Shown: piece after piece, positions 34,601 through 36,542 of the stretch
How the letters are laid out: every line of letters begins with the position of its first letter
Position numbering within the stretch: the first letter of the stretch is position 1
From: Escherichia coli O157:H7
Lineage (GTDB): Bacteria; Pseudomonadota; Gammaproteobacteria; Enterobacterales; Enterobacteriaceae
Reading direction: 5' to 3' (one strand)
DNA: 64,000 nt
NCBI RefSeq assembly: GCF_013167455.1
Contig: NZ_CP038328.1
Position numbers: made by a program

Positions 34601-36542
34601 AATAAGCCGCCCGGCACGCAGGGCTTCGCGCACGGCAATGCGCGGGATCTGAATAATCCCCAGACCGGCAAGACCGGCGGCGAGATAGTTTTCGCTACTG
34701 TTTACCGTCAACATGCCGCCAGACTTAAACCACTGGACGCCATTAACGCTGGCAACCTCAAAACCTAACGGATGTACACCCAGGTGCGGTGTATAACGCA
34801 CTATTGCGTGTGAAGTGAGATCGTCGGGGTTTTGCGGATAACCAAAGCGCGTCAGATAGTGCGGACTGGCACAGTTGACCATGGTCAGTTTGCCGAGGGG
34901 ACGGGCGATAACGCCATCTTCCGGTAACGCGCCAGTGCGTATCACGCAATCAAAACCATCATGAAGAATATCTACCGGACGGTCATGGCTACTCAGTTCC
35001 AGCTCAATTCCCGGATGCTGATAGAGAAATTCCGACAGGTGCGGCAGTAACAGGCTTTTTGCGATTCCTGGCGGGATGTCGATGCGTAATTTACCGCTGA
35101 TACTGGTGGCATCCTGCTGAAACAGACCGTCCAGTTCGTTGAGATTACTCAACACATCTTTTGCTCGTTGATAATAGGTCATGCCTTCTGGCGTGAGTTT
35201 GACCCGTCGCGTGGTGCGCTGGAGAAGCTGGGTGCCAAGTTGATGTTCCAGTGCCTGTATCTGGCGCGAAACACTTCCTTTTGGCAAAGCAAAGAAATCC
35301 GCTGCGCGGGAAAAACTTTCCAGCTCCGCGACTTTGATGAACAACTGCATTGCGTGAATTTTATCCATTTCTTTGACCGATTGTTGTTCACAGCGAAACA
35401 GTAACGCGCATATCGCATTGTTTATTATTTTTTCTAACATCTAATGCCGGGTTTCACAATGTTGTCATGACGAATGTGGCGATTTCTCAGCAGGAAAAGG
35501 GCGGAATAGCTTTCTGAGAAAGGTGAATCCCCTTAAACAGAGCGTATTTTTCAGCGATTCCCTTTAAAGTGAATAGAGGACATATTGGCTATTTGTGCTT
35601 ATTTTTGTCTCATTGCCATTTGTTATTTTGGCTTGTGGTCGCGGAATTTCATTTTTAATTGCATGCGTACTAACCACCAATATAAGGAAATCCTCAAAAT
35701 TGTTTTAAATAGTGCCCTCGACATGTAATTTCAGGCGTTTAGCTGTAACTATTTATATCGGTAACTATTTTCTACGCGCCATCTCTGTAGAATGGCCACC
35801 GCCAAATGGCGAATTCTTATTTTTCTCGCGGGTAATACCCTTCCACTACTTAAGTCTTTTTAACGTATTCAGGTGGAGATTCAGTTATGCAAATAGTCAT
35901 GTTTGACAGGCAGTCAATATTTATTCATGGAATGAAAATCAGTTTACAGCAGCGTATTCCAGGAGTGAGTATTCAGGGGGCCAGTCAGGCAGACGAGTTA
36001 TGGCAAAAGCTGGAAAGTTACCCTGAAGCCTTAGTTATGCTCGATGGCGATCAGGATGGTGAGTTTTGCTACTGGTTGCTGCAAAAAACCGTGGTGCAAT
36101 TTCCTGAGGTTAAGGTGTTAATTACGGCGACGGACTGCAATAAACGGTGGTTACAGGAAGTTATCCATTTTAATGTGCTGGCCATTGTGCCTCGTGATTC
36201 AACCGTCGAGACATTTGCGTTGGCGGTAAATAGTGCGGCGATGGGGATAATGTTTCTGCCTGGAGACTGGCGGACGACGCCGGAAAAGGACATTAAAGAT
36301 CTCAAATCGTTAAGCGCCCGCCAGCGGGAGATTTTAACCATGTTAGCGGCGGGCGAATCAAATAAGGAGATCGGCAGAGCGCTGAATATCAGTACCGGAA
36401 CGGTAAAAGCGCATCTGGAATCCCTGTATCGCCGTCTGGAAGTGAAAAATCGCACCCAGGCGGCAATGATGTTAAATATCTCCTCCTGAAGAGGATAATT
36501 TTACAGCCAGCAGGAAGTTAGCGGCTGGCTGTAAAAATATTA

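Follow-up and report, generated by a model that had tools for sequence, protein, structure and literature searches.

YhjB, encoded within the 64,000-nucleotide stretch of Escherichia coli O157:H7 DNA analysed here (the window), is probably an orphan, atypical transcription factor of the NarL/FixJ family, in which a pseudo-receiver precedes a GerE/LuxR-type helix-turn-helix (HTH) domain and which would not be switched by canonical aspartate phosphorylation. An earlier note on this DNA had read the protein as a LuxR-type regulator with a degenerate-looking receiver and possibly an orphan, and this reading is supported on all of the points that can be computed; its suggestion that the regulator may act independently of phosphorylation is a reasonable one. 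The open reading frame at 35887..36489 on the plus strand encodes 200 amino acids, and its DNA matches the yhjB annotated in E. coli FRIK1989 at 100% identity; of 5426 complete E. coli genomes, 5423 carry the locus. The features of the gene are as follows.

35887..36489, plus strand: yhjB coding sequence, 200 codons and stop (ORF list; RefSeq record 100% identical)
35887..36270, plus strand: pseudo-receiver (REC-like) domain, YhjB residues 1-128 (AF2, Foldseek, family profile against the RcsB receiver)
35905..35910, plus strand: codons of D7 and R8, where receivers have the acidic DD pair (profile alignments, MAFFT)
36043..36045, plus strand: codon of D53, where β3 ends and receivers have the phospho-acceptor Asp (equivalent to NarL D59 and RcsB D56)
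36127..36129, plus strand: codon of A81, in place of the conserved Thr/Ser that closes β4 (equivalent to NarL S87, RcsB T87 and the EvgA Ser)
36193..36195, plus strand: codon of R103, in place of the conserved Lys that follows β5 (equivalent to NarL K109 and RcsB K109)
36271..36303, plus strand: interdomain linker, YhjB residues 129-139 (low pLDDT, weak conservation)
36304..36471, plus strand: GerE/LuxR-type HTH, YhjB residues 140-195 (Pfam PF00196)

The C-terminal part of YhjB clearly matches the Pfam GerE model PF00196 (78.3 bits, E=3.2e-22, cutoff 23.5, residues 140-195), in agreement with the earlier assignment of the product to the LuxR-type regulators, and the four HTH helices lie at residues 144-154, 159-166, 170-184 and 189-199 in the AF2 model. 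The mean pLDDT of this model is 86.3, with approximately 93 across residues 1-120 and values below 50 at linker residues 130-137. The N-terminal ~128 residues adopt with high confidence the (βα)5 fold of a flavodoxin-like receiver, in the order β1 (2-6), α1 (10-23), β2 (28-32), α2 (35-44), β3 (49-53), α3 (58-71), β4 (76-81), α4 (87-95), β5 (97-102) and α5 (107-118), although the alignment supplied to AF2 held canonical regulators and may bias the model toward a receiver fold. The best 50 Foldseek matches in the PDB are all NarL/FixJ-type regulators, with the receivers matched at a probability of 1.00; the nearest folds are those of VraR, LiaR, NarL and RcsB, and RcsB gives the highest TM-score (0.69). 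Additionally, when a family profile of the N-terminal domain is compared with solved structures in the PDB, the RcsB receiver is the best match (E=3e-8). The receiver-like topology that had been noticed in the first 120 residues is thus borne out by both the AF2 model and the Foldseek matches.

The Pfam receiver model (Response_reg, PF00072) does not match E. coli YhjB at E≤10, a point absent from the first reading. Its orthologs and relatives score 13.4-22.5 bits, versus 109 bits for the NarL REC control and a gathering threshold of 30.2 bits. From 1.84 billion representatives, the N-terminal domain used alone retrieves just 46 proteins at E≤1e-3.

The residue equivalences were taken from five HMMER profile alignments (P0163, P0166, RcsB, NarL and EvgA), with which a PDB profile search, a MAFFT alignment and the Pfam coordinates on orthologs all agree. 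YhjB is collinear with NarL from the first acidic residue (DD1) to the conserved Lys (K) with zero indels, and the spacing relative to the phospho-acceptor Asp (D) is identical in the two proteins, DD1 lying at D-46, the second acidic residue (DD2) at D-45, the conserved Thr/Ser (T) at D+28 and K at D+50. The earlier note had pointed to D7 as the sole acidic residue at the DD pair, to Arg instead of Lys in the β5 region (LAIVPRD, residues 98-104) and to D53 in VMLDGD (residues 50-55) as a candidate phospho-acceptor, and had proposed a profile alignment to receivers as the test. All three assignments hold, and neither the Lys nor the acidic pair is found at its canonical position. D7 (gac, 35905-35907) is the retained DD1, aligned to NarL D13 and RcsB D10, whereas the next codon (agg) places R8 at DD2, aligned to NarL D14 and RcsB D11. 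The phospho-acceptor position is kept as D53, the Lys is replaced by R103 in all alignments, and the Thr/Ser is lost to A81. The catalytic quintet is consequently altered at three positions (DD2 to Arg, T to Ala and K to Arg), and YhjB also lacks the Pro at D+4, the Gly at D+8 and the aromatic switch residue at K-3, where the usual Tyr/Phe is Ile100.

Two aspects of these losses were absent from the first reading. The acidic residue that is missing is the direct metal ligand, now Arg; DD2 ligates Mg2+ directly and is Asp in 100% of true receivers, and DD1 is an indirect metal ligand (PMC12632262). The conserved Thr/Ser is missing too, with Ala81 in its place and T80 at T-1. T80 was considered as the conserved Thr and rejected, as the alignments and the NarL spacing both place the T position at A81.

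In architecture, YhjB resembles the NarL/FixJ regulators RcsB, NarL, VraR, LiaR and EvgA, which have the same two domains, a (βα)5 receiver and a four-helix GerE HTH, and a similar length. However, those regulators carry the full D-D-D-T/S-K quintet and have partner kinases, whereas YhjB carries R8, A81 and R103 and has no kinase gene nearby. A pseudo-receiver has the receiver fold and lacks one or more members of the quintet (PMC12632262), and YhjB is a pseudo-receiver by this definition. Like GlnR, RamR, BldM/WhiI, HP1043, ChxR, VpsT and CsgD (Bourret et al. 2025), it is an orphan that combines the receiver fold with missing catalytic residues, and its membership in this known class is no surprise. 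The changes to Ala at T and Arg at K, at 11% each, are the commonest replacements among pseudo-receivers, about 80% of which have a non-acidic residue at DD2 (PMC12632262); YhjB shares all three changes with the reviewed proteins, as well as the lost D+4 Pro and D+8 Gly and the absence of Y-T coupling residues. It differs from them in the Arg at DD2, where the listed replacements (7% or more) are Asn, Ser, Pro, Ala and Gly (PMC12632262). YhjB is below the PF00072 threshold and therefore lies outside the data set of the Bourret et al. 2025 review; it adds a case from E. coli and Salmonella, overlooked by censuses that rely on Pfam, to a poorly understood class. In practice the gain is modest and amounts to a refined annotation of one uncharacterised regulator.

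The canonical chemistry of the pocket would be blocked in YhjB, in which Arg8 takes the place of the Mg2+-binding Asp, Ala81 that of the Thr/Ser holding the phosphoryl group and Arg103 that of the Lys. Because these three residues and Ile100 sit in the pocket of an intact fold, we infer that no histidine kinase switches YhjB by phosphorylating an Asp. Phosphotransfer surveys still count YhjB among the approximately 30 response regulators of E. coli, and to our knowledge no kinase has been found for it, which a pocket without metal ligand, Thr/Ser and Lys may explain. In light of these losses, attention should shift from the search for a kinase to the control of expression, to partner proteins and to dimerisation.

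An alternative is that YhjB is a working but inefficient phospho-acceptor, in which D53 receives a phosphoryl group from a distant kinase or from acetyl phosphate, Arg103 acts for Lys and the acids of the D53-G-D-Q-D-G-E loop aid metal binding. The retained DD1 and D53 are invariant and fit residual phosphorylation as well as the favoured pseudo-receiver reading, and the replacement of Lys by Arg is conservative. The β3-α3 loop of YhjB is acidic (D55, D57 and E59), and the CheY mutant D13K, which also has a basic residue at DD2, is termed "poorly" phosphorylated rather than unphosphorylated (PMC4671073). Additionally, a passage of PMC3405474 states, citing its reference 54, that YhjB stimulates the dephosphorylation of EnvZ and NtrB in vitro, which could represent weak phosphotransfer followed by rapid hydrolysis and to that extent argues against the favoured reading. 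Nevertheless, the loop acids are not conserved, with Gly at position 55 in 50 of 89 orthologs and a deletion of four loop residues in E. albertii YhjB, and the metal ligand at DD2 and the Thr/Ser are themselves replaced, as described above. The reference 54 cited for the effect on EnvZ and NtrB is probably Yamamoto et al. 2005 (JBC). No histidine kinase gene is found within approximately 5 kb of yhjB in the loci of E. coli, Salmonella, Klebsiella, Pectobacterium and Obesumbacterium, which supports the orphan status proposed for YhjB and also counts against inefficient phosphorylation. YhjB is not phosphorylated by QseC and has already been treated as an orphan response regulator (PMC2726761), so that the idea of an orphan with a degenerate receiver is sound and only mildly new. 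On this evidence a weakly phosphorylated YhjB is unlikely. In the same loop, an EF-hand-like DxDxDG motif (D53-G-D-Q-D-G58) was considered as a Ca2+ site and rejected as a conserved feature, because position 55 varies as above, position 58 is Ala in 63 of 89 orthologs and the E. albertii deletion falls in the loop.

The receiver-like domain of YhjB is under purifying selection, with a dN/dS between E. coli and Salmonella of approximately 0.15, compared with 0.05 for the HTH. Residues D7, R8, Q9, D53, G54 and D104 are invariant in 89 orthologs, and R103 is Arg in 88 of them; the K position is Lys in the Pectobacterium and Hafnia-type relatives. In the pseudo-receiver reading, the conserved cluster D7-R8...D53...R103-D104 probably forms an internal charge network that fixes one conformation. 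The conservation score of α1 (0.92) is about equal to that of the HTH (0.94), and α1 and α5, both strongly conserved, would provide the dimer surface of the NarL family, from which the HTH domains may bind DNA constitutively. The Asp kept by GlnR and RamR has its role in dimer formation and not in phosphorylation (PMC12632262), and YhjB resembles these proteins in keeping D53.

The same conservation bears on whether the N-terminal domain is a functionless, decaying relic in a gene that is becoming a pseudogene. Between E. coli and Salmonella, the identity of YhjB is merely 68% in this domain (18% in the linker and 90% in the HTH), frameshift and in-frame-deletion alleles of yhjB occur in E. 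coli (for example P0014, on 221 contigs, P0040 and P0049), and ChIP-exo of YhjB gave one weak site, at dhaK, with an S/N of 3.75. However, Escherichia, Salmonella and Citrobacter share 33 invariant positions within residues 1-134, and these, together with the dN/dS of the domain, the near-universal presence of the locus and the confidently predicted fold, make a relic barely credible.

The D+8 position, where receivers have Gly in 97% of cases (PMC12632262), is occupied by Cys61 in all 89 orthologs, and the pseudo-receiver could in principle serve as a sensor of a small ligand or of redox state, for example through this cysteine, as other pseudo-receivers do. Redox-regulated and ligand-binding pseudo-receivers are known and often use the region of α2, the β3-α3 loop and α3 (PMC12632262), and Cys is also present at this position in P0161 and in three of the seven YhjB-like relatives that are more distant. 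The equivalent of Cys61 is nevertheless missing in the Pectobacterium and P0153 relatives, and such a sensor has a slim chance of being correct. VpsT matches YhjB at the fold level only (Foldseek, TM 0.52). The c-di-GMP motif of VpsT is W[FLM][TS]R in the receiver domain; it is absent from YhjB, in which the four Trp contexts are W39-QKL, W63-LLQ, W88-LQE and W128-RTT, which counts against a ligand sensor of the VpsT type.

The closeness of YhjB to RcsB suggests a further alternative, in which YhjB acts as an auxiliary protein and forms heterodimers with unphosphorylated RcsB in the manner of DctR, GadE, BglJ, MatA and RcsA, with the pseudo-receiver as the docking module. RcsB is both the best profile match and the best TM-score for the YhjB N-terminal domain, and a known partner is encoded 26 kb away in the window:

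61592..62122, minus strand: dctR (DctR/YhiF), RcsB auxiliary regulator

The BLASTP alignment of DctR with YhjB (E=4e-9) spans both domains, and DctR is likewise a small LuxR-type regulator with a non-canonical N-terminal domain, in which R7 occupies DD2, D46 occupies D and R91 of a "VPR" string occupies K, so that the two proteins share Arg at DD2, Asp at D and "VPR" at K. However, DctR is only 24% identical to YhjB, has only 176 residues, carries a Thr in the DD1 position and a Ser in the T position and is encoded inside the acid-fitness island; in addition, the match between the two N-terminal domains has an hhalign E of 0.003 with a probability of just 10%. GadE, tried as another N-terminal relative, gives no signal (hhalign E=0.47), its similarity to YhjB being confined to the HTH, which also counts against an RcsB partnership. 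A two-hybrid screen of E. coli FixJ/NarL-type regulators by Pannen et al. in 2016 is said not to have reported YhjB, a further point against it. The partnership with RcsB is documented for DctR and not for YhjB, and reviews name only RcsA, BglJ, GadE, MatA, DctR, TviA, RflM and RmpA (PMC5651002). H-NS is reported to repress all RcsB auxiliary regulators and prefers curved AT-rich DNA (PMC5651002, PMC6106083), which would suit the 38.8% GC upstream of yhjB. Taken together, a role as an RcsB partner is rather improbable; within the pseudo-receiver reading, a partner protein of some kind possibly also sets the activity of YhjB.

The basic residue at DD2 beside an intact phospho-acceptor Asp is shared with CheY D13K, in which it leads to poor phosphorylation and constitutive activity (PMC4671073; bioRxiv 10.1101/781468), although CheY D13K is an engineered mutant of a single-domain chemotaxis protein. 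By analogy, we conjecture that Arg8 might bias YhjB toward an active-like state. It is conceivable, though on balance doubtful, that YhjB, DctR and their enterobacterial relatives belong to one small lineage of pseudo-receivers of the NarL type, whose arginines at the DD2 and Lys positions fill the acidic Mg2+/phosphoryl pocket as a charge mimic that locks one signalling state, a counterpart in nature to CheY D13K, with Asp53 as a salt-bridge partner and not a phospho-acceptor.

Upstream of yhjB lies a divergent gene, separated from it by a long spacer:

34469..35368, minus strand: rcdB (yhjC), LysR-family regulator, divergent from yhjB (RefSeq annotation)
35369..35886, no strand: rcdB (yhjC)/yhjB intergenic region, 518 bp, AT-rich (annotated gene ends; GC 38.8%)

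The annotated ends and the GC content agree with the earlier description of a 518-bp AT-rich spacer between yhjB and a divergent LysR gene; the spacer is poorer in GC than rcdB (53%) or treF (54%). As a pseudo-receiver protein, YhjB may have its activity set by the amount of protein made from this AT-rich, probably silenced promoter region. In Salmonella, induction by indole and a SoxS site have been described. An Rfam scan of 35200-36700 gives no match at E≤1, and a promoter scan of the spacer returns one site, on the minus strand, versus 2.8 expected by chance, which is uninformative. The rcdB reading frame is open as far as 35440, past the annotated start at 35368. The sequence of a published PhoB ChIP site falls in the spacer at 35452-35469.

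The product of yhjB is probably an orphan, atypical NarL/FixJ-type regulator whose N-terminal domain is a pseudo-receiver outside canonical Asp phosphorylation control. Pseudo-receiver regulators are a known kind of protein, and this assignment corrects the classification and study of one uncharacterised E. coli regulator without introducing a new principle. The gene and its upstream region are as follows.

35887-36489, plus strand: yhjB coding sequence, an ORF of 200 aa, annotated as yhjB in E. coli FRIK1989
35369-35886: rcdB-yhjB spacer, 518 bp, with the annotated rcdB start mapping to 35368

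From 35300 to 36600, the DNA is 100% identical to that of FRIK1989, in which the yhjB product is annotated as a 'helix-turn-helix transcriptional regulator'. The gene is flanked by the divergent LysR-family gene rcdB (yhjC) and the convergent treF, and 5423 of the 5426 complete E. coli genomes carry the locus.

A GerE/LuxR HTH occupies residues 140-195 of YhjB (Pfam, 78.3 bits, E=3e-22), which agrees with the LuxR-type assignment of the earlier note. Pfam matches no Response_reg domain in E. coli YhjB up to a limit of E≤10, and the protein has no reported score to set against the cutoff of 30.2 bits. The NarL receiver scores 109 bits, the YhjB proteins of Salmonella and Klebsiella 22.5 and 14.6, and the Hafnia-type and Pectobacterium relatives 17.3 and 13.4; these values put a scale on the erosion of the receiver. 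The full-length NCBIfam response-regulator models ErdR, MadR and RcsB cover residues 1-197, far under their own cutoffs, and phmmer against PDB sequences aligns VraR to residues 19-194 and NarL to residues 24-196. The receiver-like N-terminal topology noticed earlier is recovered in the AlphaFold2 model (mean pLDDT 86.3, about 93 across residues 1-120), which has the canonical (βα)5 order β1-α1-β2-α2-β3-α3-β4-α4-β5-α5, a disordered linker at 130-137 and a four-helix HTH. The top Foldseek matches of the model in the PDB are all of the NarL/FixJ type (VraR, LiaR, NarL, RcsB with a TM of 0.69, EvgA, VpsT and DesR). A few canonical regulators are among the 28 sequences of the input alignment and may favour the receiver fold; a profile built solely on YhjB-like N-domains supports the fold independently, with a match to the RcsB receiver at E=3e-8.

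To place the catalytic residues, the profile alignment proposed in the earlier note was run with 15 YhjB-like N-domains against RcsB, NarL, EvgA and two canonical receiver hits (P0163 and P0166). All five alignments concur, with D7 at the first position of the acidic pair (DD1), R8 at the second (DD2), D53 at the phospho-acceptor (D), A81 at the Thr/Ser (T) and R103 at the Lys (K). MAFFT gives the same register, allowing for six extra N-terminal residues of NarL, as do the Pfam coordinates in three of four relatives tested, the exception being the Pectobacterium protein, whose own D6-D7 falls on the pair. The spacing equals that of NarL (DD1 at D-46, DD2 at D-45, T at D+28, K at D+50), and by DSSP D7 and R103 immediately follow β1 and β5, and D53 and A81 are the last residues of β3 and β4. 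In this register, the two deviations described from the sequence, a single acidic residue at the pair and Arg for the conserved Lys near β5, are real, and the candidate phospho-acceptor D53 is correctly placed; the residue strings quoted for YhjB are likewise all found where they were reported. Beyond these points, the acidic pair has lost its direct metal ligand, with a cationic Arg in its place, and the conserved Thr/Ser is also lost, since T80, considered and rejected for this role, lies one residue out of register. Further landmarks are absent: Asp57 replaces Pro at D+4, Cys61 replaces Gly at D+8 and Ile100 replaces Tyr/Phe at K-3.

This pattern fits the published description of pseudo-receivers almost point for point (PMC12632262). 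In that survey, DD2 is non-acidic in about 80%, the commonest replacements are T to Ala and K to Arg (11% each), and there is a depletion of Pro at D+4, of Gly at D+8 and of the residues of Y-T coupling; characterised members are mostly orphans and often constitutive dimers, and GlnR and RamR use the retained Asp for dimer formation. YhjB differs in its Arg at DD2, a replacement that the survey does not list. CheY with a basic residue at DD2 (D13K) is poorly phosphorylated and constitutively active (PMC4671073), a parallel to R8 that may serve as a lead rather than a test. Residual phosphorylation, for which the acceptor D53 is in place, is an unlikely reading of YhjB. QseC does not phosphorylate YhjB, which is described as an orphan response regulator (PMC2726761); it is said to stimulate dephosphorylation of EnvZ and NtrB, with no kinase known, in a statement that PMC3405474 takes from its reference 54.

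The orphan status suspected earlier agrees with this literature and with the genomic context: no histidine kinase gene lies within about 5-6 kb of yhjB in the E. coli, Salmonella, Klebsiella, Pectobacterium and Obesumbacterium loci. The order yhjE-yhjD-yhjC-yhjB...treF is common to the first three. In Salmonella (locus L002, 5609-7835) and Klebsiella (L003, 3892-4650 and 5606-6636), yhjC-yhjB...treF is kept with extra genes inserted: a phage-lysozyme-family gene directly after yhjB in both, a HEPN_STY4199 gene in Salmonella, and an acetyltransferase gene in Klebsiella, which also has a short-chain dehydrogenase gene between yhjC and yhjB. In Pectobacterium (L004, 3553-5000), about 1.4 kb without a called gene lies upstream of the YhjB-like gene.

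A second LuxR-type protein encoded in the window bears on the lineage.

61592-62122, minus strand: dctR, encoding a documented RcsB auxiliary partner

The BLASTP alignment of DctR with YhjB spans both domains (E=4e-9), and the N-domains alone give an hhalign E of 0.003 but a probability of 10%. Both proteins have Arg at DD2 (R7 in DctR), Asp at D (D46) and the Arg of 'VPR' at K (R91), and the two may belong to a single pseudo-receiver lineage as distant paralogs. A partnership of YhjB itself with RcsB, as for DctR, is about as improbable as residual phosphorylation. GadE (48890-49417, minus strand) has no N-domain similarity to YhjB.

Few known domains are as common as the receiver, with about 2 million in InterPro (PMC12632262). 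When residues 1-134 of YhjB are searched against 1.84 billion representative proteins, 46 are matched at E≤1e-3, mostly YhjB orthologs or their fragments, and by this measure the N-domain is a narrow, divergent lineage. Named members come from Escherichia, Salmonella, Citrobacter, Intestinirhabdus, Klebsiella michiganensis/oxytoca, Pseudescherichia, Pectobacterium and Obesumbacterium/Hafnia. In 89 orthologs with lengths of 199-200 aa, no substitution occurs at D7, R8, Q9, D53, G54 or D104; 88 of them have Arg at position 103, 82 have Ala at position 81 and just 73 have Thr at position 80. The more distant Pectobacterium and Hafnia-type relatives have Lys at DD2 instead of Arg and keep Lys at K, so the change to Arg at K arose within the Escherichia/Salmonella/Citrobacter/Klebsiella branch. 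Among 19 non-redundant orthologs, conservation is 1.0 in the β1-α1 loop, 0.92 in α1 and 0.94 in the HTH, and lowest in α3 and α4. Between E. coli and Salmonella, identity is 68% for residues 1-128 and 90% for the HTH, with dN/dS of 0.15 and 0.05, values that are approximate because dS (about 1.4-1.6) is near saturation; the receiver-like domain is, on these comparisons, maintained yet fast-evolving. The β3-α3 loop is variable, with Gly at position 55 in most Salmonella sequences and a four-residue deletion in E. albertii (P0002), and such change would be unexpected in a catalytic loop. A calcium-loop-like DxDxDG motif there (36043-36060, residues 53-58, D-G-D-Q-D-G) was rejected as not conserved, Salmonella having D-S/G-G-L-D-A and P0002 lacking four residues.

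Cys61 (36067-36069) stands at D+8, where 97% of true receivers have Gly (PMC12632262). All 89 orthologs have this Cys, as do three of the seven more distant YhjB-like relatives, and it may form a redox or ligand site; ligand or redox sensing as the function of YhjB is a very unlikely reading. Other E. coli carry a frameshift allele (211 aa, 221 contigs), altered past residue ~163 with the HTH recognition helix destroyed, or in-frame deletions of β4-α5 parts of the N-domain (variant proteins P0014, P0027, P0040 and P0049), and yhjB is, to judge from these alleles, dispensable in some lineages. YhjB is a GroE-obligate substrate (PMC10068320); ChIP-exo gave one weak site, at dhaK, and SUPERFAMILY assigns only the C-terminal domain (PMC8464067 supplements).

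The divergent arrangement with yhjC across an AT-rich spacer of 518 bp, as first described, is borne out at 35369-35886 (GC 38.8% vs 53-54% for the adjoining genes). This length holds with the shorter annotated rcdB start at 35368 (299 aa in RefSeq); the ORF (34469-35440, minus strand) runs in frame to an upstream ATG, giving 323 aa. Enteric yhjB genes have long, AT-rich leaders, of 518 bp in E. coli and of 630 bp in Salmonella. The spacer is bound by SoxS in Salmonella (PMC10268841) and by PhoB, without transcriptional effect, in E. coli (PMC10294691); the sequence of that PhoB ChIP-seq site, TTTCACAATGTTGTCATG, recurs without mismatch at 35452-35469 (plus strand), 84 bp upstream of rcdB as annotated. 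Salmonella yhjB is induced 7- to 20-fold by indole (PMC3405474). The genes yhjB and treF converge, with stops at 36489 and 36540, and between these stops is a strong hairpin (36494-36541; core stem of 13 bp, -23.3 kcal/mol, z = -7.3). Neither strand of it reads as a textbook intrinsic terminator, because the U and A runs lie within the stem and there is no 3' U-tail.

Elsewhere in the window, bcsQ of the cellulose operon (~11778-12530, plus strand) is a pseudogene with an internal stop according to the matching RefSeq record (100% identical across the 1.3-kb segment compared), and a chu/shu heme-uptake cluster (~52580-61531; chuA, chuS, shuT, hutW, hutX, chuY, shuU and an ATPase gene) lies between yhiD and dctR within the acid-fitness island.
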